IMG/VR virus record: IMGVR_UViG_3300037231_000119
Location: 64,001 to 128,000 of that record
DNA length: 64,000 nt
From: a virus
Direction: 5' to 3' (one strand)
Each line of letters begins with the position of its first letter. Within the stretch, counting starts at the first letter, position 1. The translations under genes and the position numbers were made by a program. Below the pieces are notes generated by a model. It saw only the letters and a program-made list of their open reading frames with translations, was not told where the DNA came from and ran no database searches. This document shows positions 2,127 to 39,554 of this stretch, piece after piece.

Positions 2127-4877
2127 TTAGCTTGCTGACTGTTGAACCGCACTGAGAGCCAAATTAATTGCTACAAAGTATATGCTCGTAGTCAATTTTG
2201 CTTCAACATTCACAGTCATAGTGGGTGCCGAAAGTGTAATGCTGGCATTTTTATATCCAAGAGGTGCATCATTCGACGTAGTCACCATCTTAAGCTTCTT
2301 GTAGAAGTCGAATCTCTGTTGCAAGAAGCTCAGAGCAGAAGCTGCAGTGACATCGGCCACAGATCTTCCAACAATTGCACTCTGAAAACTTTGCGCGAGG
2401 TCAAGAGCTAAAATGTCAGATAGATATACGGCCTGAATCGAATTATAAACGAAGCTCGAATTTAGGCCAAATGAGGTCTGATCGGATACCCACAGGATTC
2501 CACTTGTATTTTGAGTTAGAACCAAAAGGCCCGCAATGATCGCCTCACTCACATCCGCTGGATCACCAGAGTCATATCCAACTGGGTCCTGGAACGAAAC
2601 GATATTGGCCAAGTGGTTACAAATAGATTTGTAGAAACCGCCGCACTGTGTGCCAGCCGCTACTGCCGCCGCATACCAAGGCAAGAACAACTGATTCACA
2701 CCAGCCGAATTTACCTGAGTCACTTGCTGACACGTCAGAGAGCAACGATAGCTTGCCAAGCTCTGAGCTTGTGCCCTAGCATTAGCAAACGTGTCATTGA
2801 TGGACAGAATCGCCATACGATTATGTTTCAGGGTAGGGGTTGAGAACTGAATGCAATGTGACTTAAGAAGCTCATTGATGGCGTCGATCGTATAAGTCGA
2901 ACTTGGATCCGTATTACCGGCCGTAATATCTTTACTCGCATCCTGAGAGAACAAAGGAACAATGATATTGACCTGGATACCGCCCATTTGAGCGATCGCA
3001 TTTACAATGTCATTCGCAGACGTTCCACCCAAAGCGCCACCAGTCAAGAACACCATAGAGCCTGGTACTGGAAGACCGGAAGTAGCCGTAGGAGTAAAAC
3101 CAACCGCCGTAGAAGTATTCAATTGATTCTGGAATGTAAACAGGGAATTCTTCACACGTCCTGGTTGATCTCCGTCCGTAGAAGCAATCCCGATAGCCGT
3201 AACATGATCCAGAGAAGAGGTTGGATTCGAAGTAGCAGAGCTTCCAACCGTTGCCGTATACCCTGGCTGCGTGTTAATGAATGCCGCCAACTGGCCAACC
3301 GTAGTATACTGAGAAAGAACGATTGAGAGATTAGCGCCAGTTCCACCCGTGACGGTCGTTGTCAGCATGGTTGAGTTAATGGTCATCGTTCCGGTCGTTC
3401 CAGCGTACCCAACACTCAAGGCAATAGCTGGAGCAATATTGAACGTCTCATTAATCTGCGCAGTCGTATTGATAATCGAGACTTCAACCGCTGGCTCTTC
3501 GCTAGAAGTAATAAGTCCAGCCGTCATACCAAGAGCGGCCAAATCACCAGGAGTAGAATCGATCAACTCAAAGCTTTGTCCAAATCCACTCGCGTATGGT
3601 GTACCTTCAGCAGCCATCGTGAACACCAGAGTATTCATCGCAGACCCAGCAGATGCCGTAATACCAGCAGGGAGAAGAAGATTCAGCTCCGTAATCAACT
3701 CAGCAATATTGGAATGCGCAGCTCCGACGATAGTTCCAGGTGGAAAGCCAGTGACCGAATTGGTAGGGCTTGATCCCACGTTTCCAGTTACAACCGAAGA
3801 CCCAGTATTGGTAACCCCGGAAGAACCCAAAAGACCGAATGAACCAGCATAGTTAAGAAGAGGGGAATTCTGAGCATTGACAACCGTTGCGGCACTGAGA
3901 GTAACTGCGCCCGTAAGAGCAATCAGGGAACCGTTAACAGTTCCACCCAAAGTATCTGTAATGCTATCTTCCGCAATGACGTTACCAGCGAAGGTTCCGC
4001 TAAAGCCAGAATTGATCGTAGCCGAAGATCCAACTACCCAGTAGATGTTAGCAGCTGTCGCACCACCGGTCAGCGTCATGGTCGGGATACCACCAGAACC
4101 GGTAACCAGAGTGCTAGAGGTCTTGATAACATACACCCCAGCGCCATTGAAGGTTAGGGTTCCAGCTCCAGAAGCTGCCAAGCTAGCTGCGCCCGTGCTA
4201 TAAACACCGGGAGTCAACGTTTGGCCGTCGAGAGTCGCAGAGATCGGAGTAGCGGTCATACCGGTCAGGCTAGTATAGGCAGACATGGCGGCAGATTGAC
4301 CAGCGGCCGATTCAGTAGGAGTAACAGGGCTAGAAGATCCGGAACTGAGTGTAATTACGTGAGATGCTCCACCGTTCACACGAATAGAGAACGTATCGCC
4401 ATCCAGAGCGGTACCAAAAGCAGGGACCGTATTCCCAGTAACTTGTGGAGAAACTTCGTTACTGATGGAGGTAACCGTGTAGTTGAAGAGATTTCCAGCT
4501 ACACCGAAGTTAAGCGCCGTGAGAGTTCCATAACCAGGAACGGAAGCGGTCGCCTGTGTACCCTCGTTGGTTTTGAGGATATAGATGGAAGTAGCCGTTC
4601 CGGAAATGTCTGGATCGTTACTAGGAGCCGAAAGAGCAGCAAAGGCGTCAACGATTGGACCCGAGCCGTAAATAGCTCTTACTTGGTTGTAAGCGCTAGG
4701 CCCGAAGAAGTTGTTAGCCAACGTAACTTCAGAGTAGTTAGGGCCTTGAGCAGCTTCACCCATGATAAGAACAACCCCTGAACTCGCAAGTCCGGAAGCT
4801 GTTGAAATTACAGTGGTATTTACGTAGGCGCCAGGGATTGGGGTAGAAATCCAGGGAGTATTTAAAAATTGTGCCAT
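2127..4877 (-). CDS. Contractile tail sheath protein with an inserted DUF3494 (ice-binding-like) domain
   Basis: Sheath N-terminus IPGAY..VLIMGEAAQGP..YGSGPIVDA; C-terminal sheath region LTGGALG, IIVPL, GLLVL, DQTS; upstream of the tube gene. Confidence 0.9.
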   Translation of the reverse strand: MAQFLNTPWISTPIPGAYVNTTVISTASGLASSGVVLIMGEAAQGPNYSEVTLANNFFGPSAYNQVRAIYGSGPIVDAFAALSAPSNDPDISGTATSIYILKTNEGTQATASVPGYGTLTALNFGVAGNLFNYTVTSISNEVSPQVTGNTVPAFGTALDGDTFSIRVNGGASHVITLSSGSSSPVTPTESAAGQSAAMSAYTSLTGMTATPISATLDGQTLTPGVYSTGAASLAASGAGTLTFNGAGVYVIKTSSTLVTGSGGIPTMTLTGGATAANIYWVVGSSATINSGFSGTFAGNVIAEDSITDTLGGTVNGSLIALTGAVTLSAATVVNAQNSPLLNYAGSFGLLGSSGVTNTGSSVVTGNVGSSPTNSVTGFPPGTIVGAAHSNIAELITELNLLLPAGITASAGSAMNTLVFTMAAEGTPYASGFGQSFELIDSTPGDLAALGMTAGLITSSEEPAVEVSIINTTAQINETFNIAPAIALSVGYAGTTGTMTINSTMLTTTVTGGTGANLSIVLSQYTTVGQLAAFINTQPGYTATVGSSATSNPTSSLDHVTAIGIASTDGDQPGRVKNSLFTFQNQLNTSTAVGFTPTATSGLPVPGSMVFLTGGALGGTSANDIVNAIAQMGGIQVNIIVPLFSQDASKDITAGNTDPSSTYTIDAINELLKSHCIQFSTPTLKHNRMAILSINDTFANARAQAQSLASYRCSLTCQQVTQVNSAGVNQLFLPWYAAAVAAGTQCGGFYKSICNHLANIVSFQDPVGYDSGDPADVSEAIIAGLLVLTQNTSGILWVSDQTSFGLNSSFVYNSIQAVYLSDILALDLAQSFQSAIVGRSVADVTAASALSFLQQRFDFYKKLKMVTTSNDAPLGYKNASITLSAPTMTVNVEAKLTTSIYFVAINLALSAVQQSAS
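3711..4326 (-). other. Circularly permuted DUF3494 ice-binding-like beta-solenoid within the sheath (aa ~185-388)
   Basis: SAY..L, LDGQTLTPGVY, LTFNG, LTGGATAANIYWVVGSSATI, FAGNVIA..SIT, GSLIALTGAVTL, then the normally N-terminal segment AGSFGLLGSSGVTNTG..VTGNVGSSP..SVTGFPPG. Confidence 0.85.
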
Positions 4878-7148: not shown

Positions 7149-7964
7149 TTACCCCTTATATTTCTGCAAGATCGCTGGAAGGACACTATTATTCCATTCA
7201 TTTTGGGCCCACTCTGCGGCATCTGGGAAAAATCCCTTAGCGTTTTGAGCCGGATATTGCCACTTCCCATCATCGCCTTCTATGACAGTTCTGAAGGTAG
7301 TCATTACTTTCTTAGCGTTACCATTCTTATTCAAAACCTGATATATGTGGAGCCTTGCGAGTTGCTCGGTATTTCCACGCCCCGGTATCTTACTTGGAAT
7401 GTCAAAAACATGTAAGGGGAGAGGATGTCCATTAGGCCCCATTTTACTTATTCTCGGGCTCCCATTAGAATCCTTTTCAATTCCGCTCCACGAAAGCTTT
7501 TGACCTTTTAGAAAACCTTTGATACTTCCAATAAGCTCCTCATTCTTAGCAAGAGTCTTAATATTCAAACTGTCGGATTCTTTACCTTGTGGCATTGGAA
7601 TAATTTTGTAATGCTTGCCTTTATTAGGGCCATTCTTAACAGTCTCAGAATCTTTCAAGAGACCGTATTCTCCAGGCTTACCCTTCATATCCCACGGCTT
7701 ACCTTCTTCGATAGGAACTGCCGGTTCATTTAACGTGATCTCCCAAAGAAAGTCGCTGATTTGTACGGCTTGGCTTAGACTAGCTAGATATTTTTTTGCA
7801 ATCTGAGTATTTAGCTTTTGTCCCACCTCTTTTACCATGTTGGCGTGGGTAGCTTCCGCAAGCCCCTTAATACCTTTTTGAACATCCTTCGCGATTTCTT
7901 TTGCAAAGTTATTCAGGTATTGGGTTAAAGAGGAGATGTCTAGGTTGACTTTGATATCGCTCAT
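7149..7964 (-). CDS. Putative neck/head-tail protein
   Basis: IEEG..WDMK..LL, IIP, TFRTV..KWQYP pattern and synteny. Confidence 0.5.
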   Translation of the reverse strand: MSDIKVNLDISSLTQYLNNFAKEIAKDVQKGIKGLAEATHANMVKEVGQKLNTQIAKKYLASLSQAVQISDFLWEITLNEPAVPIEEGKPWDMKGKPGEYGLLKDSETVKNGPNKGKHYKIIPMPQGKESDSLNIKTLAKNEELIGSIKGFLKGQKLSWSGIEKDSNGSPRISKMGPNGHPLPLHVFDIPSKIPGRGNTEQLARLHIYQVLNKNGNAKKVMTTFRTVIEGDDGKWQYPAQNAKGFFPDAAEWAQNEWNNSVLPAILQKYKG

Positions 7965-9151
7965 AGAATACCCATCATCTTCAATTTAGGCTCATTCCAA
8001 AGCTCAGCATTAGGAAATTGTGTAAGAAACCAATCCCATTTAATTTGGGAATGAGGTCTCATATACCCCTTAATTTCGACCCAAGTATTAGGCTCTATAA
8101 GAAATAGATCTGGGCGATATGTCTTAGCTGTCCCAGATTTGGTAAAAAGGGGCGTCGTGAATGTTTGGGGTTGCCACAAAAAATCAATCTTTTTGGAATT
8201 AAGGTAATCCACTACTTTGGGTTCGTAACCGGCCTGACAAATAAGTTCCTCCCCAGTTTTCCAGTGTATTTTTAGGGTAGTATTTTGTAGTTTTTTAGCG
8301 TGCGTTAATGCATATGAGGGATCCTGAGATAGATGTTCTACCCCATACCTCTCCAGATTAGTTTTCCTTATCTTATCTAGTTTTCTTTTGGGATGACCTA
8401 TAAATTCCGCTCTAGGGAGTGACCAGAATTCACCGTGGTCCTTGTCAACGAAACGTGCCGTTTCATTCAGCCCCGTGTAGGTAGTTTCGTCTAAAATAAA
8501 TTCGTCCCCGAACTTCTTTAATTTTAATCTTACCTCCTCAATATTCAATTTCTTACCCTCATTTGCCCTATCGGGATGCCCATGGCCATCCATAACTCTA
8601 GCTGGGGTAGAAATCCATTCTCCGTAATCTACATCCATAAATGAACATTCGCTACGAACTTTCGTATGAGTAGAATCTATTATAGAGACAGTATTGCCAT
8701 GTTTCTCAAAAATGATTTTTTTGATATTTCTCAAGGGGGTTTTTGTTCTGTCATACCCTCTTTGAGGATGACCTCTCCCCCTCAAAACACCAATAACTGT
8801 CGCGGGCCATTCCCCATAGTCGCTATCCACAAAAATAGCCTTCTTGTTTACATTTACATAAGATGTTCGCACAATACGTACCGTATCACCATGTACGCCC
8901 TGAATGCGCTTCTCGATATCATCCACAGAAAGTCTTTTCCCGCTAAACGCATACCTTTTTCTCTTTGGATGGCCCTTGCCGTCCCTATAAAGCGCTGCCG
9001 GAATTGCAGTGAAATTACCAAAAGCCTCATCTATAAAGACAGCGGTAGTTTTTACGTCTACGTAGGAGGATTCTTCCATCCCAATAACGTATGGAAGTCT
9101 TCCCTGGACTCTTTCTAGAACTTCCTTACATGTAAGCTTTTTAATACCCAT
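7961..9151 (-). CDS. Homing-endonuclease-like protein: D..G.F/W...GHP repeats plus PD-(D/E)XK nuclease
   Basis: Four repeats ending GHP; TNLERYGVE motif; YRPDLF..WVEIKG; TTGACA at 9181-9186 upstream. Confidence 0.75.
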   Translation of the reverse strand: MGIKKLTCKEVLERVQGRLPYVIGMEESSYVDVKTTAVFIDEAFGNFTAIPAALYRDGKGHPKRKRYAFSGKRLSVDDIEKRIQGVHGDTVRIVRTSYVNVNKKAIFVDSDYGEWPATVIGVLRGRGHPQRGYDRTKTPLRNIKKIIFEKHGNTVSIIDSTHTKVRSECSFMDVDYGEWISTPARVMDGHGHPDRANEGKKLNIEEVRLKLKKFGDEFILDETTYTGLNETARFVDKDHGEFWSLPRAEFIGHPKRKLDKIRKTNLERYGVEHLSQDPSYALTHAKKLQNTTLKIHWKTGEELICQAGYEPKVVDYLNSKKIDFLWQPQTFTTPLFTKSGTAKTYRPDLFLIEPNTWVEIKGYMRPHSQIKWDWFLTQFPNAELWNEPKLKMMGIL

Positions 9152-9187
9152 ATACTTATAATTTCATATACTTGAATATGTGTCAAG

Positions 9188-9415
9188 TTAATTCTTTGGG
9201 GGTTTTACTGGAGCGCCTGATTGAGGGTCCTTCACTCTGCCTTCCAACATGGAGACGAACCTGATATCTTCTGGATCGTTCGGATTTACCCATTTCATTT
9301 GCGACTTACTTGATAATCCGCCCGGTGGGATAGGGGTTTTTGCAACATGGACAGTAGTATGTTTGGAGGGTAATTTAGCTGCTGAGGGTAGTCCTGCTAC
9401 CCCACCGCTTTTGGG
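9188..9415 (-). other. Probable programmed -1 frameshift (C CCA AAA, 9409-9415) giving a 73-aa C-terminal extension to 9397..11775
   Basis: In-frame X XXY YYZ heptamer; hairpin GGGGTAG-cagga-CTACCCT 5 nt downstream; -1 frame closed by TGA just before the heptamer and open to TAA at 9188-9190. Confidence 0.75.
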
Positions 9416-11775
9416 TCACTCTGACCCTCCGCTTTCGGTCCATCTGGCGCACCGGATTGTGTAGCTTCCGCGACCGCACCCGGATCCTGAGGTGCATCTG
9501 AACTCATCTTAGGCTCGAGACCTAAGAGTTTGCACAGCTCGATCATGGCCTTAAGCATCTGGATCGTGCTTTGGTAAAGTCCGGGACTTTGATCTTTAGC
9601 CTCTTCTAGGAATGCCTTATTTGCCTTAAATCCCTGTAACGTTTGGGATACTTGATCTATAACCTGCGCCCTCTTTTGTTCCTGCGCGTGGTCATCTAAA
9701 CCACCCTGGAGAACTCCAGCCATATCTGGTTCATCCTGGCCATCTTCAGCCATCGGATCTTGTCCCGATTCTTGTCCCAATTCTCCATTTTGTCCCGATT
9801 CCTGAGCCATCTGATCCGCATCGCCCTGTGTACCTTGATAGTCTGGAGAGGCCATACGATCGATCGGACCTTCTTCTCCGCCTTGACTTCCAGGGCAATC
9901 TGGACAGTTACATTCATGGTCGCTATTCTGCATGTCCTTTTCAGCATCTGAAACGTTATTCTTTTGCTTATCGCCAAAGTTTTCGGGGACAGAGGCCCCC
10001 TCTTCCATCTCGTCGCCTTGAGGAAGTTCAGTATTGTCAATCTTTTTAGCTTCAGCCTCAGGAGTTTGGTCACCCTCTCCTGGCTTCTGATCCAATAGGT
10101 CTAAAACTTCTTCAGCCGTTTCATGTCCTTGTAGATTGGGATCTTCTTGGCCAGTTTGATCTGGCTGCTCTTCGATAGCGTCCCCATACATCTCTTGGCA
10201 CTGCGGACAGTTGTCTGGTTGCTCGGCAGACATATCTTGGACACCCAAAGCGGTCGCATCATGTTTTGGGCAATTCGGGCAGTTACAAATATGGTCTACG
10301 TCTTGTCCTTCGGGAGTCCCAGCTTGAGCTTCTCCAACGGTTTCGGATTCACAATAAGGGCAACCATCTACGCCGCCAGCCTCATCGGGAGTATCTTGGC
10401 AGTATGGGCAGTCATCCTCTTCCGAACTTTCCTGACAATATGGACAATCATCCGTATCTATCCCACCAGTATTTTGCTGGGAAGCATCGTATTCCTTACA
10501 AGCATCACAATCATGCATCCCAGCCGAACCATCCGCATTTTCTTGAGCATCCAAATCTTGGCAATAAGCACAGTCGTCCGTACGGTTATCTTCTTGATCA
10601 GGATTCTGAAAACCCTTGTCTTCTTTGTCGGCAGCTCCGTTATGGAAGCCCTCTTCATGCTTATGAAGATTATGGGTATGTTCAGACTTATACATCTCGG
10701 GCTTAGACATCCCCGCCTTGGAATCAGATCGTAGTTCTGATGCTGGATCGCTGTGTTGGTACGCAGCTCGACTATGTTGGTCAGCTATTTTAGAATGGAT
10801 ATCTCTATGTGCGGGATCCTTAGCTCTTTCTTTGCTACCGAACGCTCCTTGTTTTCCTTGATGAAAACGCCCCAGATCATTGTGAATTTTGGCCGCGTCG
10901 GCATGATCTTGCGGAGTGTATTTTAAAGTATTGGCAAACGCTTCAGATCGAAAATGAACCGGTTTCTTAGATTGGGTATGCCCCACAATATCGGAATCCT
11001 TGGGATGAACTGGTGCCGCATCCGAATCTGATTTATGAAGACCGCATGTATGTTCATACTTTACCATAGGCGCTGTAGTAGGTGCTGGGACTACGGTTAC
11101 CACGTGCCTCATTATGGCGCCATGTTTCTGATCTCTTTTATCCGCAGCACTATGTAAGCCCTTTTTACTTCCCACCGTTCCTTTATAGTGAAGAGTGCCG
11201 GTAGTGGGGCTATGAGAAGCTAAATGATATTTTTCGCCAGGCTTTAGATCTGGGGCGCCATAGAGACCGTGTTCACCTTCAGCTTTATGTAAATCGCACT
11301 TCATATTTTCGCTCTTTTCCAGATAAGCATCCGCAAGCTTCATCTCTTCTTGATTGGCAGTTTTAGCCTTAACTTTTTCGCGCATTTTATCAATGCCCTT
11401 TTCTACTTTAGGTCCATACCAAACCGTCTTATTCTTACCTGTAGCTTTGGCGTAGAGGAGACTTCTACCCGCTTCAGACAAGTCCTTACCAATACCAACT
11501 GAAATATTTAAGTCGGTGGCCTCGTAGTACTTACTTCTTAGCTCTTCCACATCTTTAGCGGCTTCAAACGGGATGCGAAAACTCCCCTCATCTCCACCAC
11601 CAGAAATTCTTTTACCACCACGCTCTGATACCCACTGATTAACGATCTCGTGACCCAAATCGATCTTGGCCGAGATATTGTGGAGAGCCTTCTCATCATT
11701 TGCAATGATGGCCTTACCGCACTGGCGACCAGCACCGTCCGCATCATAAGTAAGTCTGAGCATGGGCTTACTCAT
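9397..11775 (-). CDS. Putative head polyprotein: N-terminal mCpol (minimal CRISPR polymerase)-like domain, His-rich modules, acidic CxxC-repeat region
   Basis: YDADGAG...GGKRISGGGDEG...ISVGIG...A..SLLYAKATGKN; LEKSE, LHKAE, LHKSD, MYKSE; eight CxxC units. Confidence 0.7.
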   Translation of the reverse strand: MSKPMLRLTYDADGAGRQCGKAIIANDEKALHNISAKIDLGHEIVNQWVSERGGKRISGGGDEGSFRIPFEAAKDVEELRSKYYEATDLNISVGIGKDLSEAGRSLLYAKATGKNKTVWYGPKVEKGIDKMREKVKAKTANQEEMKLADAYLEKSENMKCDLHKAEGEHGLYGAPDLKPGEKYHLASHSPTTGTLHYKGTVGSKKGLHSAADKRDQKHGAIMRHVVTVVPAPTTAPMVKYEHTCGLHKSDSDAAPVHPKDSDIVGHTQSKKPVHFRSEAFANTLKYTPQDHADAAKIHNDLGRFHQGKQGAFGSKERAKDPAHRDIHSKIADQHSRAAYQHSDPASELRSDSKAGMSKPEMYKSEHTHNLHKHEEGFHNGAADKEDKGFQNPDQEDNRTDDCAYCQDLDAQENADGSAGMHDCDACKEYDASQQNTGGIDTDDCPYCQESSEEDDCPYCQDTPDEAGGVDGCPYCESETVGEAQAGTPEGQDVDHICNCPNCPKHDATALGVQDMSAEQPDNCPQCQEMYGDAIEEQPDQTGQEDPNLQGHETAEEVLDLLDQKPGEGDQTPEAEAKKIDNTELPQGDEMEEGASVPENFGDKQKNNVSDAEKDMQNSDHECNCPDCPGSQGGEEGPIDRMASPDYQGTQGDADQMAQESGQNGELGQESGQDPMAEDGQDEPDMAGVLQGGLDDHAQEQKRAQVIDQVSQTLQGFKANKAFLEEAKDQSPGLYQSTIQMLKAMIELCKLLGLEPKMSSDAPQDPGAVAEATQSGAPDGPKAEGQSDPKAVG

Positions 11776-15016: not shown

Positions 15017-16660
15017 TTATTTCTCTTTTCCGTAGGCTTCTCTGACTTTTGCAACGTGCCAGTGATTTTTGATATCCTGTTTATTTTTTAAAGCGCCTTT
15101 TGTTCCCTGAATTCCATTCAGCCACCCATAGGCTAAATTGTCTGGATTGTTACCCAATACATGCTCCATATGGGATAGGTGCCTATCAGCGATGGTGTTT
15201 TCGAGACCCTTATGGTCGTTCATATAATTATGAAGCTGTTGACCCTTAAGCGCTAAAGCCTTGCCATGTTTTGAGGCCAAATCTTTATGGCCTTTGATAG
15301 TCTCTCTAATAGTTTCTGGCATCAATCCATAGGCGCCATACGCATGCTCAGCCCCATGAATTGGTCCACCACCTGCGGCATGATTCGTGTTTTTTCCACC
15401 ACTCGACTCAACAGAGGCGATAGCCCTAAGCATCTTAGCGTGGTCATAGTTTGATTTAGGTTGGGCGTGTTGAATGCTGGCAGGAGACCGATTTCCAGCA
15501 TCTGTTTGAGGAGCAGATCCAGCTAAGGCGCCAGCCATACCAAGTGCAATACCGGCATTTTTGAGTGCGCCTTTTTCCAAAGACTCGCTTTTATCAAAAT
15601 CTGGATTGTTAAGTCTAGCTCTAGCCTCTGAAAGATAGTTCGGACTTCCAGGCTTAGATTTCATTTTATTCTTTATTGGAGCCATTCTTTCAGCTTCGAG
15701 ATGCTCTAATTGCTGTCCCGACTCTCTCTTTATATCTTTAGCATGGCTGATATTTTTTGATCTGGATTGTTGAGAAGCCATCACGGAATTAAGCTCATCA
15801 CCTGCATTACCGGCCTTCGCTTTATTGGGACTAAGAGCGGCTATGCCCATAAGAGCGCCAGCGGTTTTTTCTTTCCAGCCCTTGTGGAGTTCACATTCTC
15901 CCTTACTCACTTTCTCAGGCAACTTCTTTCCCTTGGTCGCCTCATCCCATTCATGGACACCAGCTTCACCACCTAGAGCTTTTTCTCCATTAGGGGTGTG
16001 CGCCCATCTCTCTTGTGCTAGACTTTCGTAAGGCTTGGCCAATGGCTTCTTACCGAGAACATTTTCAGCTTTAGTAACCGGCACATTCACCTTAGCCGTA
16101 AAATCCGAATGATCCGGAAACTTGGGTTCGGCAGTATCGGCTTCGTGATGGTAAGTTTTGATAGTTTTGGGGCCCTTATTGAGAACTGCATTTCCAAAAG
16201 ACAATCCGGCTTCATGGGCCGTTTTTGCACCGGAAGATTTAATTTTATCCCAAGTACCTTTATCAACACTCACATGCGGAGACCATTCAAATTTTGAAGG
16301 GTGGCCCATATGAGCAAACTTTCCATTGTGCTCCTTCATCTTATCGGCCGAGTTCCCCTTTAATTTGACGACAAATACGTCGTTCCCATTACGATCTTTA
16401 AACTGGGCAGGCTCTATTTGCGTATTTTTAGCATCAGGGGGATTTAGTGGGAGATGTTGGGCCAAATCATGAATGGAGTGAAGATGGTCCTTTTCTTTAT
16501 TGAATTCTTTCAGACTAGCGTGATATCCAATGTTATTATCGGGCCTGTGAGTTTGGCCGTTGATCTTTACGGGATAGCCAAGAAGGATTCCCTCTGAGGC
16601 TAGTTTCGCATAACCGGCAGGATCTTCTTTTTTGTGGAGGTTAGGCGCATTTTTTGACAT
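15017..16660 (-). CDS. Putative head polyprotein: Acb1-like 2H phosphodiesterase, small modules, two hydrophobic segments, lytic transglycosylase (SLT-like)
   Basis: YHASL and PHVSV 82 aa apart; AIASVESSGG..AYGAYGLMPET..AYGWLNG; VTKAE, VSKGE, LHKGW, FDKSE, LEKGA. Confidence 0.75.
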   Translation of the reverse strand: MSKNAPNLHKKEDPAGYAKLASEGILLGYPVKINGQTHRPDNNIGYHASLKEFNKEKDHLHSIHDLAQHLPLNPPDAKNTQIEPAQFKDRNGNDVFVVKLKGNSADKMKEHNGKFAHMGHPSKFEWSPHVSVDKGTWDKIKSSGAKTAHEAGLSFGNAVLNKGPKTIKTYHHEADTAEPKFPDHSDFTAKVNVPVTKAENVLGKKPLAKPYESLAQERWAHTPNGEKALGGEAGVHEWDEATKGKKLPEKVSKGECELHKGWKEKTAGALMGIAALSPNKAKAGNAGDELNSVMASQQSRSKNISHAKDIKRESGQQLEHLEAERMAPIKNKMKSKPGSPNYLSEARARLNNPDFDKSESLEKGALKNAGIALGMAGALAGSAPQTDAGNRSPASIQHAQPKSNYDHAKMLRAIASVESSGGKNTNHAAGGGPIHGAEHAYGAYGLMPETIRETIKGHKDLASKHGKALALKGQQLHNYMNDHKGLENTIADRHLSHMEHVLGNNPDNLAYGWLNGIQGTKGALKNKQDIKNHWHVAKVREAYGKEK

Positions 16661-17648
16661 CTGCCCCTCCTAAGAAATCTAGGCAACGTTGAATGCAGGA
16701 TTGTTTATCTAAATCCCAGTCCACCTCTTTGATATGGAGGATTTTAATGTCCTTAGTCGCAAAATGAGCATCCTTAAGGTCGTGGTAATTATAGACGTCT
16801 TCGTCTGGCCAATGTTTACGCGACCTTTTTAGGCCCTTAAAGGAATGATGATAGGTGCCATCAAATTCTATGCCAAGTTTTAGCTCTGGAACGTAGATAT
16901 CTATATCAAAACGTTTAATATGAGGTTTCCCCTCTATGCTAACTTTAGAACGTAACGTATTAGCGGTAGGAAAAAACGCTTTGACGTTATCCGAAAGCTC
17001 TTTCTCTTTAAGGGAAATGCTTCTTGATTTTTTCATATGTGAACATACAATATCCAGTATACCCAAATTTCTCGCTGCATCCCAGGCACCCGCCCCATAT
17101 TTTTTAAATTCCCCACGACTATTGTATTTTAGAGCCTCTTGATGGATCTTTTCTACCGTATCCCATTTGACTTCCCACAGGGGGGTCATATGAACACAAA
17201 AATCTTCTATTATTCCCTGCCTGTGCATCGCGCTATAAACACCCGGATGTAAATCTCTAAGTTGCTCTTTACTATTGCAAGTAAGTGCTATGCGCTTAAG
17301 ATCTTCTAGGGAATAAGCCTCATTGCACTTTTCGCCCATAAAGGCGCAAATATCGTCAAGCCACCCCATTCTTTGAGCTTTGTCGTAAGCTCCTGCACTG
17401 CCCCTAGCAAAAGAAGTTCTATCGGCATAATTATATGCTTCTTTTTGTACTTCCTCAAAAGTCTCCCATTTAGGTTCCCATAAGACTTCCATATGGGAGC
17501 AAATCCTGTCTAAAAATTCGGGACCTTTTCGCCAAGCTGCCTTATAAGCCGCATTACTATATTTTTGAAAATCAATACGGCTAAGATATTTGAGAGCTTC
17601 CGCCCTCAATTCTTCTGGTGTCCATCTGTGCCGTTTTTTAACGCTCAT
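16641..17648 (-). CDS. Homing-endonuclease-like protein: helical repeats plus Vsr-like nuclease
   Basis: W..E...EALKY.SR..F....AY..A...LD.ICSHM repeats; FDIDIYVPELKLGIEFDGTYHH; upstream TTGTAA-N17-TAGTAT. Confidence 0.75.
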   Translation of the reverse strand: MSVKKRHRWTPEELRAEALKYLSRIDFQKYSNAAYKAAWRKGPEFLDRICSHMEVLWEPKWETFEEVQKEAYNYADRTSFARGSAGAYDKAQRMGWLDDICAFMGEKCNEAYSLEDLKRIALTCNSKEQLRDLHPGVYSAMHRQGIIEDFCVHMTPLWEVKWDTVEKIHQEALKYNSRGEFKKYGAGAWDAARNLGILDIVCSHMKKSRSISLKEKELSDNVKAFFPTANTLRSKVSIEGKPHIKRFDIDIYVPELKLGIEFDGTYHHSFKGLKRSRKHWPDEDVYNYHDLKDAHFATKDIKILHIKEVDWDLDKQSCIQRCLDFLGGADVKKCA

Positions 17649-20499: not shown

Positions 20500-21006
20500 C
20501 TATCTGTTGCTTTTTCTCATCTCAATTAGAAGATTCGTTATAGCTATCATTTCAATATAAGATATGGAATTATTTTTAATTAGATTGCATGTGGAACAAC
20601 AAGGAACCACATTGTCAGCATAGTAGTCTTTACTGTTATCTTTTCTGTCTAGGCCGTGCCCTGTTTCTGGGAGTCTTCCCTTGCAGTAATGGCAGGAGTC
20701 ATCTTCCACTATGGAAATCCATTCATCCAAAGTAATGTGCCAGCTATAGCCCCTATCTTTGGCAGCTATTATACCTCTTTTGAATCTACTTTTGTTCTTT
20801 CTAGCATGCCCATACGATTTTGCTCGTCTTTCATCTCTATTCGCTAAGTAGTATTTTTTAGATTGAGCGTTCAATTCTTCCCTATTAGAGTTGTTGCGCT
20901 CTATCGTACATTTTTGACAATAAGTCTGAACACCGTCTTTTCGGGCCTTATTTTTTTGGAAATCCCCGATATCTTTTTCTAAATTGCATCCTTTACAGAT
21001 TTTCAT
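20500..21006 (-). CDS. HNH homing endonuclease
   Basis: KICKGC..F..YC..C; CHYC..GLDRKDNSKDY..NVVPCCSTCN; upstream TTGACT-N16-TAATCT. Confidence 0.8.
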   Translation of the reverse strand: MKICKGCNLEKDIGDFQKNKARKDGVQTYCQKCTIERNNSNREELNAQSKKYYLANRDERRAKSYGHARKNKSRFKRGIIAAKDRGYSWHITLDEWISIVEDDSCHYCKGRLPETGHGLDRKDNSKDYYADNVVPCCSTCNLIKNNSISYIEMIAITNLLIEMRKSNR

Positions 21007-21121: not shown

Positions 21122-22525
21122 TTAGGTAAACAATTGTCCTTGCAAATTCTCGACGATTGCATTTTTCCGTGGCGCCTCTACTGCGAGCGTAGTCCACCTG
21201 TAAAAAGCATTGTTAATGCTCAATTGAGAGATACCGAGCTGAAGCTTTTTAAAGCCACTCAGTTCGCCCATGTGTCCCGTATCCTTCTGAATCAGGAAAC
21301 CCGTGAGAGCGCCAGGAGCCATGTTGCCAAGGTCCGTGAACGTCGCACCACTTGGGGCCGCCGCGATATTCCCGATGAAGAGAACACCCGGAGAAACCGT
21401 AGCTGCCACACCGGCCGCCGTACGATACACACGGTAGTAGAGAGCGCCAGCAGCCGCACCGATCGTCAGAGTGACCTTGTTACCAGCGAGAGCAGGCGTA
21501 ACGGTCGAAACGGCCGAGAGAGGCCCTTCACCGTAGGCGTTAACCGCAGCAACAGCGTACGTATACGCAGCAGCCTGAAGGAGAGACCCAGCGGCCCCGC
21601 CGTCAGCAGAAGCCAACGTAGGCTGAGCAGGAGCGCCCTGAATCTGGACGTTGATCGGATTGATCTGTTTACGCAAATATTGCGACATTTCCATACTGAC
21701 GGCACCTGAGCTAGTCCACTGCGTGCGAAGATGCGCGCCAGTAGCTTCCTGAGGTGAACCAGCGAGAACGATACGTTCCTTAGCCTGGCTGATCTTGTTA
21801 TAAGCAGAGAGGCTGGAAGGATCCAACATCAGCTTGTCCGCGCGACCCATGTTAAGGGCAGAACGAACCGAGATATCTTCGATCAGGGACTGCGTAAGAG
21901 CAGCGCCACCAGCCGAGAACACAACCGTTGCGCTCGAACCGTACGAAGCGAACATCAGATCCTGTCCATTGCGCTCGAAATCCGAGGCGCGAACCTGGAG
22001 ATCCCAACCACGCATATTGGCGAGAGCAGGAACTAGGGCAGGATTGCCATCGAAGACTCCGTTGTTTGAGAAATCAGAGTTACCAGAGAACAGGTCGAAC
22101 TCGATGTCCTGAGCAAGGTTAAGGGCCGCATCCTGAGCTTGGCGCTCTTCAGCAGTCACCTTGTCAAACGTTTCAACAGCGTTCGCAACGAGCGAATGTT
22201 CGCGTGTATCGACGTAGTACGCCATTGGGACCACGAGACGAGCAGCTTGGCCAGTCTTTTTCGCGCCCAGCATACCTTCGTAAGCCGCTGATCCGCCGAA
22301 ACGGCCGACAGACAATTTACGATTGTACTGATAGAGATTCGACTTCGTATTACGAACATCGAGCATCTTCTGCAGTTTGATGGTCTCTTCGGCAGCCGTG
22401 ACATTGATCATCACTGGAGCCAGATCTTCGATTTGATAAGCAGCGCCCTGTACGAGGGTAGAAGGGGCGGCATTATATGAACCCGCTTCGAGTGCCTTCA
22501 TCAGAGTTTGGAGTTGGTCTAACAT
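21122..22525 (-). CDS. Major capsid protein (SPO1/Twort-like type, FN3-like insertion)
   Basis: KALEAG..GAAYQIEDL N-terminus; IEFDLFSG; YTYAVAAVNAYGEG..YYRVYR; follows the scaffold; strong terminator. Confidence 0.9.
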   Translation of the reverse strand: MLDQLQTLMKALEAGSYNAAPSTLVQGAAYQIEDLAPVMINVTAAEETIKLQKMLDVRNTKSNLYQYNRKLSVGRFGGSAAYEGMLGAKKTGQAARLVVPMAYYVDTREHSLVANAVETFDKVTAEERQAQDAALNLAQDIEFDLFSGNSDFSNNGVFDGNPALVPALANMRGWDLQVRASDFERNGQDLMFASYGSSATVVFSAGGAALTQSLIEDISVRSALNMGRADKLMLDPSSLSAYNKISQAKERIVLAGSPQEATGAHLRTQWTSSGAVSMEMSQYLRKQINPINVQIQGAPAQPTLASADGGAAGSLLQAAAYTYAVAAVNAYGEGPLSAVSTVTPALAGNKVTLTIGAAAGALYYRVYRTAAGVAATVSPGVLFIGNIAAAPSGATFTDLGNMAPGALTGFLIQKDTGHMGELSGFKKLQLGISQLSINNAFYRWTTLAVEAPRKNAIVENLQGQLFT

Positions 22526-32771: not shown

Positions 32772-33785
32772 TTATGCTACCTTATCGTTTTCATGCAATG
32801 GATTTGTGATATTTAAAAACTCTAAACATCTCTGTACACAGTCTTCCTTATTTGCTTTCCACTCTTTTTCCGTAATATGTAAAATCTGAATTCCTTTAGT
32901 CTCAAACCACTTATCTTTTAAATCATGGTAATTACGAATATCTTCGTCGGGCCAATGTTTTCTGCCTCTCTTAAGACCTTTGAAAGAGTGATGATAGGTT
33001 CCATCAAATTCAATCCCCTTCATTAGTAGACCACTAAAAATATCTATGTCAAACCCGTGAATATGTGGCCTACCTTCAATTTTAACTTTCATGTCTCTAA
33101 TGGATCGAACATCGGAGCAATACGATTTAACTCTAGATAAAAGTTCTTTCTCAAAAGAGGATATTCCTCCCGATCTCCTCATATGGGAACATAAGAGATC
33201 TAAAAAAATCCGACCTCTTTTGCTAGCGGCTTGATAGGCGCTTGGATCCATTTCTCTAAAATTTCCCCTGCTTGTATATTTAAGTGCTTCCACAGAGATT
33301 TCCTCGTCTAGCCACATTTCTCTGAGAGAGGGCCCCATATGAATAAAAAATTTACTTCCCTTTCTAAGGGCGGCCCTATATTGTCCAGGACTCCCGGCCA
33401 AAAAATCGTAACGGGAGGTGTATTTTTTAGATTCCTCCCCCACTTCTTCGTCCGTATACGGTCTCCACAATACGTCCATATGGCTACAAATATTGCTTAG
33501 GAAGTCTCCACCCTTTCTCCAAGCGGCCTCGTACGCTAAAGAATTGTTTTTCACAAAATCTTTTCTTGAGGCGTATTTAAGCGCCTCAGCGGCCATTTCT
33601 TCTTCCGACCAAGCTATATTGTGGGAGGGGGCCATATGACCACAAATCTTATCCAGAAAAGCTCTTCCCTTTCTTTTCGCAGCATTGTACGCATTGCGAT
33701 TACCCAATCGAAATTCTTGTCTTTTTGAATAAGGATTCGCAGCTACTTGAAGTAGGTCATCGGTCCAAATAAATCTTTTACTCAT
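32772..33785 (-). CDS. Homing-endonuclease-like protein, paralog of 16641..17648 (start revised to 33785)
   Basis: Same helical repeats; KVKIEGRPHIHGFDIDI..GIEFDGTYHHSFKGLKRGRKHWPDED. Confidence 0.75.
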   Translation of the reverse strand: MSKRFIWTDDLLQVAANPYSKRQEFRLGNRNAYNAAKRKGRAFLDKICGHMAPSHNIAWSEEEMAAEALKYASRKDFVKNNSLAYEAAWRKGGDFLSNICSHMDVLWRPYTDEEVGEESKKYTSRYDFLAGSPGQYRAALRKGSKFFIHMGPSLREMWLDEEISVEALKYTSRGNFREMDPSAYQAASKRGRIFLDLLCSHMRRSGGISSFEKELLSRVKSYCSDVRSIRDMKVKIEGRPHIHGFDIDIFSGLLMKGIEFDGTYHHSFKGLKRGRKHWPDEDIRNYHDLKDKWFETKGIQILHITEKEWKANKEDCVQRCLEFLNITNPLHENDKVA

Positions 33786-35604
33786 CTGCTTCCTCATCTT
33801 CACAAAGCATATCATCAACTTCCATGTGAAGCAAGTCCATAGCGTGTGGACGTGGGGCGAACATTGCAAGAAGAGTATTGGGGGCTGTTGTTGCCATAAG
33901 TTGGTAGAATTGCAAGCTAAAAGGATCACGCTTAAACCTGAGCATCGGGTCTACGAAAGCAGCAGGGCTATTAAAAAATCTTCCCTTGACCTGTCCCACA
34001 TCTAAATATTTGTCCCAAATTAACTGGAGTCTTTCTGAAAACTGCACTTCCCCGCCCATTGCAATACCAATAGGATCCTTATCTACATGCTGAAGAACCT
34101 CATCCATCGTCATATGCGTTGGCATATTTTGCTGAAGCTGAGTAGATTCCTGTTCTTTGCTTTCAGCGTCCAGACCAGCAAATTTCAACACGACCATTTT
34201 AGATAAGATCGGATCGATGATCGGAATTAGACGCTGATTAAAGAAAGTTTCGAAATGAAGTAGAAGTGGAACGAGACCTGAATCTCTAGCGGCTTCCATT
34301 TTGAATTCGTTGTTTGACTCACTCAACGTTTGCGAGTTTGAGCCCTTACTTAAATGTCCGTAGCCAGGAATTTCATCAGGGCTCATTTGGAATGTAGCTA
34401 GAATATTTCTCGCCAGTTGGTCGTAAACATAAGTGAAGCTGTCATCTGCGCGATCGTTAGCGAATGACAACCACTTAATGTCTTCCGTGGGAGAAATGCC
34501 CATCAAAGGGGTACGAAAAGAATTCTGAACACCATTAATTGACGCTTGGAATTCCTGTCTGAATTTTTCAAGAGTGGGGGAATCAACATCATCACTCTTA
34601 ATAACTAATGCCCCACGAGTGGCTCGTCCATTTTGAAAATATAGACGCATCCACGTATCAATACTTATGTGTGATGTGATACTCGAAATAGCAGTTTCTA
34701 TTGGTGGAATAGGATATCCATTTTTTTCCACGTCCGTAGACGGGTAGAAAATGTGCATCAGAAGTTCCTTATGGGTAAAATACTGCTTAGCAATTCCCTC
34801 TACCTGCTGGCACCAAGCATACTTGTCTTCTCTGAGCTTGTCGTAGTCAATTTTGATTTTATCGCCAGTGATGCGCTCAAGTTCTTTAATGGCTAAAATA
34901 CGACTATTGGTTCCTGCACTTTCACCATTTCGTACCGTTTTGTAGATGGTTCCAGAGTCAATCGGCCTAAAACGGTTGAATGGGAATTCCCCGTCCTTAT
35001 CTGGATCGGATTCACGATCATAAATGATTTCAGTGCCCATCCAACCAAAAGTGCAGGCGTTCTCTACCTGTGTACTTAGATATTGACTAAGGGTCATCTT
35101 CTGTTGATTTTCAAGACCCTCTGTATGACCGCAGTTCAGCAAAACGGTCTCTAGCCGCTTAATTCTTTCCACTACTTTTTCGTACTGTTCGGTATTAAGA
35201 AGTTTCATGAATTCCGGCAGGATTTCAATCGACATTCCCTTGTCGAATCGGTCAGCACGCTTCTTACCAAATTGACTAAGCTGTCCGCCACGAGTACGGA
35301 GGATGGCAGCAATCAAATGATCCTGGGTTCGGACCATCTTCAAAATACTATCTGGGATCTCATTTCTTTTAGCCTTAACAACGCCCGCATAAGCATCATT
35401 ATAATTCGGGCTCTCCATAAAGGTAAGAGCGGGAGCACGTTCCGTAGCCTTACCGGTCGCGTCATTCAATGCTTTTTGGAGCGGAGCAAGATCCATCTTG
35501 TTCTTATTTAGTTCTTCTAGAGGCCCCATCTTGGACGACTCAGAAAGAGTCAAAGACATCTTGCTGGGCTTAATGGCAGATTTAGGCTTTGTGTCATCAG
35601 TCAT
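33778..35604 (-). CDS. Portal protein
   Basis: RFRPIDSGTI, GYPIPPIE, YFQNGRATRGAL, ILATFQMSPDEI, RDSGLVPLL. Confidence 0.9.
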   Translation of the reverse strand: MTDDTKPKSAIKPSKMSLTLSESSKMGPLEELNKNKMDLAPLQKALNDATGKATERAPALTFMESPNYNDAYAGVVKAKRNEIPDSILKMVRTQDHLIAAILRTRGGQLSQFGKKRADRFDKGMSIEILPEFMKLLNTEQYEKVVERIKRLETVLLNCGHTEGLENQQKMTLSQYLSTQVENACTFGWMGTEIIYDRESDPDKDGEFPFNRFRPIDSGTIYKTVRNGESAGTNSRILAIKELERITGDKIKIDYDKLREDKYAWCQQVEGIAKQYFTHKELLMHIFYPSTDVEKNGYPIPPIETAISSITSHISIDTWMRLYFQNGRATRGALVIKSDDVDSPTLEKFRQEFQASINGVQNSFRTPLMGISPTEDIKWLSFANDRADDSFTYVYDQLARNILATFQMSPDEIPGYGHLSKGSNSQTLSESNNEFKMEAARDSGLVPLLLHFETFFNQRLIPIIDPILSKMVVLKFAGLDAESKEQESTQLQQNMPTHMTMDEVLQHVDKDPIGIAMGGEVQFSERLQLIWDKYLDVGQVKGRFFNSPAAFVDPMLRFKRDPFSLQFYQLMATTAPNTLLAMFAPRPHAMDLLHMEVDDMLCEDEEADE

Positions 35605-36440: not shown

Positions 36441-39400
36441 TCAAAACGAAAAATGGAAAGACCCCTTCTTCCCTGTTCCACCTTTAGATACGGGCCCACC
36501 AATAGCCTTAGCTAGCTCTTTTTGCATCATTTCATGCTGTTCCTGGGTGTGTCTTTGCGCTTCAGGGATTGGATTGGGGAGACTAGGATCTATCATTGAA
36601 ATATTGGGTCTTTGGGGTCCACTTACCGGGAACATATTTTGACCTAAATATCTCAAACTATCGCATATGTCGGCAATACCAGGAGTGTCATCTGGGGTGG
36701 AAGTAACCTGTCCCTGACCATCTAGAACAAACCTATGCTTCATTATGGCAGTTCTGACTTTTTTGGTATTTTCTGTCTCTAGTACTTTTAGGAGCCTTTG
36801 TCCAGTTGCAGTCATAATTTTTGATCTAACTGACCCGATACCGCCCATAACATCTTTGGTAAATTTTGGACAAGGACATCCATTTCTCACAAAAGCTTTG
36901 ATATATGCTGGAGCCGAAGTATCTGCGTACCACTTCATAACACTATATTTTTCTTTGAAATTGACAGCTACCGGTATTAAGTCCTGAATTTCTAATTTTG
37001 GACTAGCAAAACAATCGATAATCCAAACCTCTCCACTTGGTAGTTTGGCCATTACTAAAATAACACTATCGTGGGTATGACCCCAGTCAACACCGCAGTA
37101 GATTGGGATGTCCAGAGATTTTAGGATCCCCATAATCGTATGTTCCGCAACATTAGAGGGGGCCGGATTTCCAGTCAAATCCTCAAAAGCTTGTTTTAGA
37201 GAAAGTAGATTACCTTCTTTATATCTATCCACGTATCTGGGGTAGACGAGACCTTCAGAACCAGGGCGCCAGCACATTAACTCAGCAGAGGCAATGTCCG
37301 CATCGTTATCCGCAAATTTTTGGATTACGGACGAGATCGGTTTATAGAAACCACCGGTAGCTGTTTGCGGTTTTTGGGACAATCTGGTTCTACATACCGG
37401 CAAGAGCTTACATCCAACACACCCACCATGGACATTAGTGAGCATGTCGTATTTGGGCTTCTCGACATCGGGGAGTCCATTGAACTCCTCCCCGCTGATT
37501 TGTTTTAGGGGGAGATCTTTTACTACGAAGACATCTTGCTTAGGGAGATCCGGCTTATGTCTAGATGGGGGACAAGCTTCCGTAACGTCTAAAATATTCC
37601 AGGAAAGTATGGTCGAATTGGTCCCTTCGGCCTTATCGATTGCGGCCTGCATGTTACCAAAGTTGTATTTTCTGGTTGAAAGGTATACCTTGATACCGTG
37701 AAACCCTCTACTGAAACCCGCGATGTTCTTTCCCTGCTTGATAGCTGCTGGATCGGCCAAGTCCAATTCGTCCAAAAACAGGAAGTTTGCATGTAGGGAG
37801 TTCATTCCCTTAGGTGTGCAGACCAATATTTTAATAAAAGGGTTTTTACCATCAGGAGTTTTGTATCTGGTAGTTCTCTTGTTTTTAGTCATATTGATCC
37901 AACCGCTGATCTCTAGCAGAGGGGCAATATTGGTCAAGAAATCATCGATATAAGACATAGCGACTAGAGATTGTTCTTCGGTCGCTGCTGCATGGGCAAC
38001 AGTTCTGGAAAAATGCAACATGATTAGAAGCTCTAGAATCGAGACAGAAACGGTATTGTGACTAATGAGCCCATTAGACCAATACGAATGTTCATTCTCT
38101 ACGGTTAGGTCATAAAAATACTGAGGTCCTGGATCTTCTACGGAGAACTTTTTCCACTTATTGAGCAAGATCTTTTCATATCTACGGACTATTTGAATAT
38201 CGTCTTCTGAGACGTATCCATGTTCGTAGTTTTCGTTCATCCAGAGACATAGGCGGTTGAGCTTATCAAAAGTGACACCTTTGTAGTAGGCGGCTTGATC
38301 CGTGCGATCTTTCTTGACCCTCCTATTTTTTATTTTTGCATGTCCGTATCTGTTGCACACATCTAAAAAATCTTTTATGTGAGCGATAGGAAGAGAGTCC
38401 TTGCAGTTGGGAATCTGATTTTTTTTATATCCTTGGGCTTTCTTAGCCTTAAATATGATTCCAAGTTTCTCAAACTTAGCAGACTCCGTTTGACCTATAG
38501 TCAATCTACTAACGAGATGTTTTTGAATCCCATAGAGTTTTTTATTATGACGCACTCTAGACTCTATACCCATTGCTGCCAAGGCGATCTGCATTTGGTC
38601 TAAAAGTGGACCGGCAGTCATTTCGAAAAACGAATCGCCTTTCTTATCCCAGCAACCGTCCGTATCAAATACGCCCGCGATAAAGCCCTTCATGGCATCG
38701 ATATCGGAATAGGCGTAAGAAGGAATTGTCTTTTCCCAAGAATAGGAATTGGTGAGACCCCATTCTCTTATCTGGTCCAAAGCCCTTCTATTGGTTATTG
38801 TATAGCTTAAGTTGGTTCCTCCATAACATATATGGGAATCATGGAGGTGTTTTTCGGCAAAATAGTAAAAAAACTCTTTCGTATGACTGTCTATCGTTGT
38901 AAGTGAGAACCTACAGTATTCGTCCATTAAACTGAGACCGCCGTCACCAACAAGCAGTCCCAAAAAATACCCGATCTCGTATTTTTCTCGATTCTTAACT
39001 ACTGAATCCTTAAATCCAGTATTTACATTAACACAAATAAGGTCCGTCCCAACATTCAAATCTTTTCCGGCTACCCATTGTTCCGTACCATTTCTCAAAC
39101 ACCAGTATCTATGGATAGGAGTTCCGGTGGACTTAAACCCTCCGTCCAATCGGACCTCGAGTGCCGGTTTCATTCCCTCATCAAAAGTCTCCGTAACTTT
39201 TTGCCATGAGAATCCAGTCCATACAATATCTCCCCTTTTAACATCCTCGATCTTTTTAAACCCATCATAGGTCATTATAATTGTTGACTTTTTCGTACAC
39301 TTCATCCCTTCTCTGCACGACATGAGAATGAAATTTGGGGTTACGTCCCCAGTATTATTTTTGGCAGCATTGTAGACCTGCCAGATTGCGTCCAGAGGAG

Positions 39401-39554
39401 ATGAAGTAGATCCTGGATCTGTAATTTCCAGTGGCAGCTCAAGATCCAAAAAACAACGTGCCCAGTCTTTTATTTCCTCTGAAGACTCAAGAGGGGTAAA
39501 AAGAAGTTCGGCAAATTCTTTCTTTTGATCATCTGTTAGGGATTTAAAATCCAT
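36441..39554 (-). CDS. terL: Terminase large subunit with intein
   Basis: Walker A CREGMK|T split by an intein; Walker B LFLDELD; coupling motif YLST; nuclease GVDWG..HDS, DICDSLRY. Confidence 0.9.
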   Translation of the reverse strand: MDFKSLTDDQKKEFAELLFTPLESSEEIKDWARCFLDLELPLEITDPGSTSSPLDAIWQVYNAAKNNTGDVTPNFILMSCREGMKCTKKSTIIMTYDGFKKIEDVKRGDIVWTGFSWQKVTETFDEGMKPALEVRLDGGFKSTGTPIHRYWCLRNGTEQWVAGKDLNVGTDLICVNVNTGFKDSVVKNREKYEIGYFLGLLVGDGGLSLMDEYCRFSLTTIDSHTKEFFYYFAEKHLHDSHICYGGTNLSYTITNRRALDQIREWGLTNSYSWEKTIPSYAYSDIDAMKGFIAGVFDTDGCWDKKGDSFFEMTAGPLLDQMQIALAAMGIESRVRHNKKLYGIQKHLVSRLTIGQTESAKFEKLGIIFKAKKAQGYKKNQIPNCKDSLPIAHIKDFLDVCNRYGHAKIKNRRVKKDRTDQAAYYKGVTFDKLNRLCLWMNENYEHGYVSEDDIQIVRRYEKILLNKWKKFSVEDPGPQYFYDLTVENEHSYWSNGLISHNTVSVSILELLIMLHFSRTVAHAAATEEQSLVAMSYIDDFLTNIAPLLEISGWINMTKNKRTTRYKTPDGKNPFIKILVCTPKGMNSLHANFLFLDELDLADPAAIKQGKNIAGFSRGFHGIKVYLSTRKYNFGNMQAAIDKAEGTNSTILSWNILDVTEACPPSRHKPDLPKQDVFVVKDLPLKQISGEEFNGLPDVEKPKYDMLTNVHGGCVGCKLLPVCRTRLSQKPQTATGGFYKPISSVIQKFADNDADIASAELMCWRPGSEGLVYPRYVDRYKEGNLLSLKQAFEDLTGNPAPSNVAEHTIMGILKSLDIPIYCGVDWGHTHDSVILVMAKLPSGEVWIIDCFASPKLEIQDLIPVAVNFKEKYSVMKWYADTSAPAYIKAFVRNGCPCPKFTKDVMGGIGSVRSKIMTATGQRLLKVLETENTKKVRTAIMKHRFVLDGQGQVTSTPDDTPGIADICDSLRYLGQNMFPVSGPQRPNISMIDPSLPNPIPEAQRHTQEQHEMMQKELAKAIGGPVSKGGTGKKGSFHFSF
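38055..39299 (-). mobile_element. Intein (415 aa) with LAGLIDADG endonuclease in the TerL P-loop
   Basis: Starts CTKKSTII, ends YDLTVENEHSYWSNGLISHN|T; LGLLVGDG and IAGVFDTDG. Confidence 0.92.

Follow-up and report, generated by a model that had tools for sequence, protein, structure and literature searches.

The mCpol (minimal CRISPR polymerase) gene in the virion module of the phage analyzed here very probably ends in a programmed -1 ribosomal frameshift cassette of the bacterial three-part dnaX/IS type, from which two isoforms of the protein would be made. This conclusion was drawn from comparative sequence analysis. A programmed -1 shift at the heptamer C CCA AAA, giving two isoforms, had already been proposed in a preliminary description of the locus. 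The proposal is now strongly supported by about 60 related loci, namely by the heptamer, the dN/dS of the added frame, a covarying hairpin and a Shine-Dalgarno (SD)-like motif. The fixed ratio of the two isoforms that was claimed at the same time was a conjecture.

The mCpol gene and its genomic context

The DNA originates from an IMG/VR virus record of 162,446 bp. The window, that is the whole stretch analyzed, comprises 64,000 nucleotides of this record, and all coordinates given below refer to the minus strand of the window unless indicated otherwise. The virion module is encoded on this strand in the order terminase-like gene (36441-39554), portal gene (33778-35604), major capsid protein gene (21122-22525), mCpol gene and tail sheath gene (2127-4877). 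The capsid gene matched PHROG 752 (E = 1.9e-38), and its product shared 46.7% identity with the capsid protein of Myxococcus phage Mx1, which was the only cultured relative.

The 0-frame ORF of the mCpol gene spans 9397-11775 and encodes the short isoform of 792 aa. Its product had been called a head protein in the preliminary description. The gene lies between the capsid and the sheath genes and does not encode the capsid protein, and the placement in the head was a guess from position.

The 792-aa protein begins with the mCpol domain. A long middle region follows, which is acidic and Cys-rich with CxxC pairs, then a helical domain, after which comes a Pro/Ala/Gln-rich linker that contains the shift site. 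The mCpol domain (residues 9-119; 11419-11751) matched Pfam family PF18182 (E = 7.7e-11) with 42.8 bits compared to a curated cut-off of 26.4, and contains a GGGDEG motif. Additionally, a profile of relatives in which the extension is fused in frame matched the PDB entries 9nwn and 9mnr (E = 2e-14). By its sequence the protein is a member of the mCpol (PF18182) family and a putative enzyme. The conserved C-terminal helical domain (approximately residues 686-756; 9508-9720) carries the motif FKANK...MLKAMIELCKLLGL with invariant alignment columns. In the model of a fused relative it consists of three helices with a pLDDT of about 90.

With 792 aa the window protein is longer than most relatives (500-560 aa), which align over only about 54% of it. 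After the mCpol domain it appears to contain an additional His/Lys-rich segment of about 230 aa (residues ~160-395, window ~10590-11300).

Downstream of the mCpol gene a gene for an HNH/homing-endonuclease-like protein was found (7961-9151; PHROG 681 and 559), followed by a 271-aa neighbour (7149-7964) with similarity to Mx1 WNM70341.1 (BLASTP E = 3e-17). In Mx1 and in the other relatives this neighbour comes directly after the extension, which marks the endonuclease gene as an insertion between the mCpol gene and its conserved downstream neighbour. A sigma-70-like promoter site for the HNH gene (TTGACA-17-AATTAT, TG-extended; 9158-9186) follows directly 3' of the TAA which terminates the extension, and the -1 frame indeed fills the gap up to the next promoter as initially described. 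Similar endonuclease genes are present in the window at 392-1486, 16641-17648, 20500-21006 and 32772-33929.

No tRNA genes by which the shift might be tuned were detected by ARAGORN in the 162-kb record. Several are present in the related phage Mx1, including one for tRNA-Lys.

The putative frameshift site

The 0-frame of the 792-aa ORF ends with AGT GAC CCA AAA GCG GTG GGG TAG. Read in the -1 frame, the same stretch is GGA GGG TCA GAG TGA CCC AAA AGC. The putative slippery heptamer C CCA AAA (9409-9415) is an in-frame X XXY YYZ sequence within the overlap of both frames. A TGA of the -1 frame is located directly 5' of it (9416-9418) and sets the upstream limit of the shift window, and the 0-frame stop TAG (9397-9399) follows three codons past the heptamer. 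The two frames can therefore be joined only within the 16 nt from this TGA to the TAG, and the heptamer occupies the start of that interval. Among the ORFs of at least 120 aa of this genome, C_CCA_AAR was found in frame 11 times in 48,203 codons (2.3e-4 per codon), and the chance of it falling into the 16-nt interval is approximately 0.001.

The -1-frame extension (9188-9409) consists of 73 codons (SGGVAGLPSAAKLPSKHTT...VKPPKN; codons 9409-9191) and a TAA stop (9190-9188). The shifted product would have 789 + 73 = 862 aa and thus exceed the 792-aa product by 70 aa. In the window, no ATG, GTG or TTG occurs in the -1 frame before codon 38, which lies beyond the most conserved part of the extension, in line with the earlier remark that its first half contains no ATG.

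Past the heptamer, after a spacer of 5 nt, a hairpin of 7 bp is predicted (GGGGUAG/CUACCCU, 5-nt loop CAGGA; 9385-9403), whose 5' arm contains the 0-frame stop. The distance agrees with the 3' stem-loop expected about 5-9 nt past a heptamer. With -13.8 kcal/mol and z = -0.94 the hairpin of the window is unexceptional for its G+C-rich composition (30 of 200 shuffled sequences folded at least as well). This is a weak point of the case, and the support for the hairpin comes from the relatives. The heptamer, the TGA, the TAA at 9188, the 73-codon frame and the hairpin had all been given correctly to the base in the preliminary description. It missed an SD-like GGAGGG (9425-9430), the GGAGG core of which ends 10 nt 5' of the heptamer. 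The calculated pairing of this motif with the anti-SD sequence (-10.0 kcal/mol) is within the top 1% of windows in the gene.

The mCpol gene contains a second in-frame C CCA AAA at 10264-10270, about 290 codons before the stop, within the peptide ...NCPKHD.... The -1 frame stops there after one codon, and this occurrence may be due to chance. Outside the window, the ORF at 148896-149261 (plus strand, positions of the record) contains an in-frame C CCA AAG 40 codons before its stop, with a -1 frame that is open for 75 codons. It is possibly a second frameshift site of this genome.

Distribution of the extension among relatives

A word-indexed protein search with the window protein yielded 87 homologues, of which the protein ends were used as evidence. 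The majority (67 of 87) ended with Pro-Lys and at most 10 further residues, and eight ended with Pro-Gln-(Gln/Arg/Phe). An in-frame C-terminal segment clearly homologous to the -1 frame of the window was carried by 10 of the 87. In an exhaustive HMMER search of 1.84 billion proteins with the 73-aa peptide, 29 proteins were matched. These were orphan ORFs of 53-96 aa, the C-termini of family proteins of 367-838 aa, and spurious repeat proteins. The latter aside, the search found the extension only in the mCpol gene family.

When the window's own gene was searched against the annotated phage collection, neither its nucleotide nor its protein sequence gave a match. Scans of viral contigs for close relatives, run with the extension and with the complete protein, gave no match either, and an alignment-based scan was needed. 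Such scans of viral and metagenomic contigs yielded 70 loci. The extension was located immediately 3' of the gene in all loci reaching that far (about 60 loci; tblastn E = 1e-10 to 1e-38). Among non-redundant loci it was in the -1 frame relative to the main ORF in 32, in frame in 12 and in the +1 frame in four. In the tblastn comparison of the 73-aa frame with relatives, which had been suggested initially as a check, extension, heptamer and hairpin were all conserved. No Rfam family matched the frameshift element.

On a tree of the helical domain the window fell into a clade (SH-aLRT 100) whose 23 rows had the -1 layout without exception. Outside this clade the three layouts were interleaved, with at least seven changes on the tree, the backbone of which was poorly resolved so that the well-supported branches alone force only one layout change.

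These data bear on the question whether the break is an assembly or sequencing indel, i.e. whether one continuous ORF as in Mx1 has lost or gained a base in the A-run. In-frame fused versions do occur in relatives and in Mx1, and the break coincides with a short homopolymer (A4). Against this, the -1 layout was present in 32 non-redundant contigs from many samples with differing flanks, always with the 0-frame stop shortly behind the heptamer where the latter was present, as well as in the entire clade around the window, and the stimulatory signals described below co-occurred with the site. We therefore consider an indel extremely improbable.

Conservation and structure of the extension

Among 46 aligned extensions the residues K12, L13, T19, H21, Q37, V59, G65 and P67 were invariant. 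For the -1 loci, the median dN/dS was 0.17, and the dS values had a median of 1.9. From the upstream stop to 12 codons past the heptamer, no ATG, GTG or TTG was found in the extension frame in 22 of 31 loci. The -1 ORF is coding and conserved and in most loci without a start of its own. The low dN/dS, the invariant residues and the absent starts together argue against a separate gene, against a dead remnant and against an assembly error.

A separate small gene with its own start had to be considered because gene callers list an orphan ORF of 53-96 aa in several datasets and because the GGAGG motif is located upstream. The first start in the window, however, would come after the invariant residues K12, L13, T19 and H21, most of the loci have no candidate start at all, and the same peptide forms the C-terminus of a long protein in many relatives. 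This makes a separate gene highly improbable. Similarly, the extension could be the decaying remnant of a once-fused C-terminus which has been separated by a frameshift mutation and has lost its expression, and the fused forms, including that of Mx1, may be ancestral. A dead frame, however, would gather stop codons, and neither stops nor relaxed selection were seen in the -1 clade. The extension in the -1 loci is open, has kept its invariant residues and is under purifying selection. We give very little credence to such a remnant.

The extension is basic and the body of the protein is strongly acidic. An AlphaFold model based on the alignment of 46 sequences predicted a beta-hairpin (residues 37-41 and 49-53) with extended flanks at a mean pLDDT of 78. 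In the model of a fused relative the linker with the shift site was disordered and the extension formed a separate small module. This model showed no confident contact between extension and helices (pTM 0.31). Pfam and PHROG gave no match for the extension, and the ESM Atlas gave no usable neighbour. With Foldseek at E <= 0.001 the extension had no match in the PDB, and the C-terminal region of the fused relative had none among viral models. As a guess, the extension may serve in binding or anchoring, with either nucleic acid or some component of the particle as its partner.

Residues 40-66 of the extension showed a summed HMMER match to eukaryotic plectin/plakin repeats (E = 2.7e-12 over 7 repeats; Pfam PF00681), and desmoplakin and envoplakin were among the non-significant Foldseek rows. 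Homology to these proteins was rejected, because a short beta-hairpin motif was summed over many repeats. It is probably a shared motif.

Slippery heptamer and putative stimulatory elements

An in-frame heptamer within the permitted interval was found in 31 of the 32 -1 loci. It was C CCA AAA in 26 of them and C CCA AAG in five, and C_CCA_AAG is highly shift-prone in E. coli (PMC5009743). The heptamer was located 6-27 nt before the 0-frame stop, which comes 2-9 codons after it in these 31 loci. The sole -1 locus without a heptamer, L018, has GGC CCC CAG. To analyze the stimulatory elements, the 31 heptamer-bearing -1 loci were aligned on the heptamer.

Upstream of it, at positions -22 to -4, 25 of 31 loci showed a predicted pairing with the anti-SD sequence that ranked in the top 5% among windows of their own gene. 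The gap between the GGAGG-like motif and the heptamer was 10, 12 or 13 nt in 26 of 31. A stimulatory SD for -1 shifts is spaced 9-14 nt upstream (PMC5009743), and the motifs of the window and its relatives fall into this range. The residues encoded by the motif vary (EG, ED, GG, GD, EE), yet the purine motif is kept, which points to a constraint at the RNA level.

Downstream, a hairpin was found 5-10 nt past the heptamer in nearly all of the 31 loci (mean z = -2.56), and 23 of 31 were within the top 10% of windows of their own gene. The stem sequences differed by clade: GGGGUAG/CUACCCU, GGGGUAAU/AUUACCCC, GGCGUGA/UCACGCC, GGGGC/GCCCC, GCUAGC/GCUAGC and CCAAUAGG/CCUAUUGG. Only the outer four stem pairs were recovered in a consensus from plain MAFFT and RNAalifold, since the loop lengths differ among the sequences. 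A structure-guided alignment with a covariance model was used instead (28 matches). Here, all seven stem pairs showed compensatory double changes, in an alignment that is fitted to the modelled stem and leans towards it, and in which one row is a spurious match. Paired cells amounted to 83.7%, compared to 69.9% in shuffled alignments (none of 500 reached the observed value) and 39-61% when the partners were slid. The covariation score was 0.231 as against 0.03-0.08 in the slid controls.

In deeper clades (L032, L058, L062, L068 and similar) the hairpin CCAAUAGG-ACAA-CCUAUUGG is built from the codons of a repeated peptide, PIGQPIG. Peptide repeat and RNA stem therefore constrain each other.

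The same elements help to weigh transcriptional slippage, in which the RNA polymerase would slip on the A-run and standard translation of the altered message would yield the long form. There is an A-run at the shift site, and in a few relatives (L003, L014) it extends to 6-7 A. Most loci, including the window, have only A4, however, and the five CCCAAAG loci have A3, whereas productive bacterial cases have been described on about 9 A or T (PMC5009743). Furthermore, the conserved SD spacing and the hairpin are ribosomal stimulators. Slippage of the polymerase is in our opinion very unlikely, and a programmed ribosomal -1 frameshift is by far the best of the readings weighed here; on the comparative data we hold it to be correct with high confidence.

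Fused and other-frame relatives

The relatives with other layouts can be regarded as natural controls. Four fused relatives (L009, L010, L012 and L062) carried an in-frame heptamer, and in these the SD pairing ranged from -9.4 to -11.9 kcal/mol and the hairpin z from -3.0 to -4.0. Eight fused relatives had no heptamer. The majority of these had neither signal: z was between -1.4 and +0.5 in seven and the SD pairing was mostly weak. The exception was L028, which is fused and without a heptamer, yet has a strong local fold. In L009, L062 and L013 the fused extension was found together with GGAGG, C CCA AAG/A and a hairpin, and the -1 frame stops 1-2 codons past the heptamer. These loci would represent a dnaX-like reversal, in which the -1 shift would make the short form.

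The four relatives with the extension in the +1 frame (L011, L015, L016 and L069) share xCC CCA CAG ... TAA/TGA. A GGAGG is located 12 nt upstream (9 nt in L069), and a hairpin with z from -2.3 to -5.0 lies just past the stop. Judged from the position of the conserved PIGQPIGKL motif, the shift in these loci would occur at the same Pro codon as in the -1 loci. Since the SD spacing reported for +1 shifts is 3 nt, we infer from the SD distance that a backward (-2) shift at CC CCA CAG would fit better than a +1 shift.

Proposed mechanism and significance

According to the frameshift model, most ribosomes would read ...Asp-Pro-Lys-Ala-Val-Gly-stop and release the 792-aa protein. Some would slip at the heptamer with tRNA-Pro and tRNA-Lys on CCA AAA. 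The hairpin, 5 nt downstream, would stall these ribosomes, and pairing of the anti-SD sequence with the GGAGG 10 nt upstream would hold them. The two tRNAs would re-pair on CCC AAA, decoding would restart at AGC, and 73 residues would be added to give the 862-aa isoform. Since the shift site is located in a disordered linker, the isoforms would have the mCpol domain, the acidic Cys-rich region and the helical domain in common and would differ only in the small, basic, highly conserved C-terminal beta-hairpin module. Through this extension, as a guess, some of the molecules may be directed to a partner, for instance the particle or DNA.

A more far-reaching model, which we regard as rather doubtful, would have the frameshift split a signalling enzyme of the mCpol type into two pools. 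The short form would be free in the infected cell, and the long form would be tethered by the basic module to the particle or DNA and delivered to the next host. The family also seems to form a natural series in which the site is used for a -1 extension, for a dnaX-like -1 truncation or for a probable -2 shift (CC CCA CAG, SD 12 nt upstream), or has been lost in fused forms.

In databases the gene is split by gene callers into a 'hypothetical protein' ending with Pro-Lys and a few residues, and an orphan ORF of 53-96 aa. As a consequence, the annotation of large Mx1-related phages from soil and peat misses the putative isoform, in which one of the best conserved segments of the protein is found. 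The site also represents a clean test case with many sequences, which combines a three-part cassette, a covarying hairpin, fused controls with and without the signals, and forms in other frames. Moreover, the mCpol family described here was the only phage-borne one seen in this analysis, and its two putative C-termini matter for any test of an enzyme role or of packaging. A literature search for mCpol together with frameshifting found nothing relevant.

Comparison with known systems

The -1 frameshift mechanism and its use for C-terminal extensions in phage virion genes are already known. What is new is the gene family, which comprises virion-module proteins with an N-terminal mCpol domain in Mx1-like phages, together with its extension module and the variety of layouts.

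The cultured relative Mx1 has a syntenic homologue (WNM70340.1; OR576727.2, 33963-35369) in the interval from the capsid to the sheath gene. Its downstream neighbour is the same, and its C-terminus resembles the extension. There the extension is fused in frame, without heptamer or frameshift, and the similarity to mCpol is weak (22% identity, E = 2e-3).

The tail assembly chaperones G/GT resemble the family in having a conserved -1 shift in the virion module, with related phages showing different frames or fused forms. An assignment to this class was rejected, because the gene is not located between those for the tube and the tape measure but upstream of that for the sheath. Furthermore, the 792-aa protein is acidic, starts with an mCpol domain and is not related to these small chaperones.

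In the head protein of phages A2 and BH1 and in 10A/10B of T3 and T7, a -1 shift near the end of the ORF likewise adds a C-terminal extension to a fraction of the molecules. The preliminary description states that CCCAAAA drives -1 shifts in capsid and tail genes of Lactobacillus phage A2. This is consistent with the literature, in which CCCAAAA is reported as the slippery sequence for the major head protein of BH1, an A2-like phage (PMC6950654), and -1 frameshifting is described for A2 (PMC5009743). However, the frameshifted gene of these phages encodes a major capsid or tail protein, whereas the window gene matched only mCpol. The extensions of A2 and T3 are Ig-like, whereas that of the window is a basic beta-hairpin module of about 70 aa without a fold match. 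The class of frameshift-extended capsid or tail proteins was rejected for the window gene, since capsid and sheath are encoded by other genes (21122-22525 and 2127-4877) and the extension is not of the Ig-like or surface-display type according to the model.

The closest layout is that of the E. coli dnaX (tau/gamma) and IS cassettes, with which the site has the three parts in common. In these cassettes an X XXA AAR heptamer is preceded by an SD-like stimulator at a distance of 9-14 nt and followed, after a few nt, by a simple stem-loop (PMC5009743). The heptamer is A AAA AAG in dnaX and C CCA AAA/G here. Moreover, dnaX encodes a polymerase subunit, whereas the putative cassette described here belongs to a phage virion-module gene and has a shorter hairpin (7 bp in the window). 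In dnaX the shift leads to the short form (gamma), as would be the case in L009 and L062, whereas in most members of the family it would lead to the long form.
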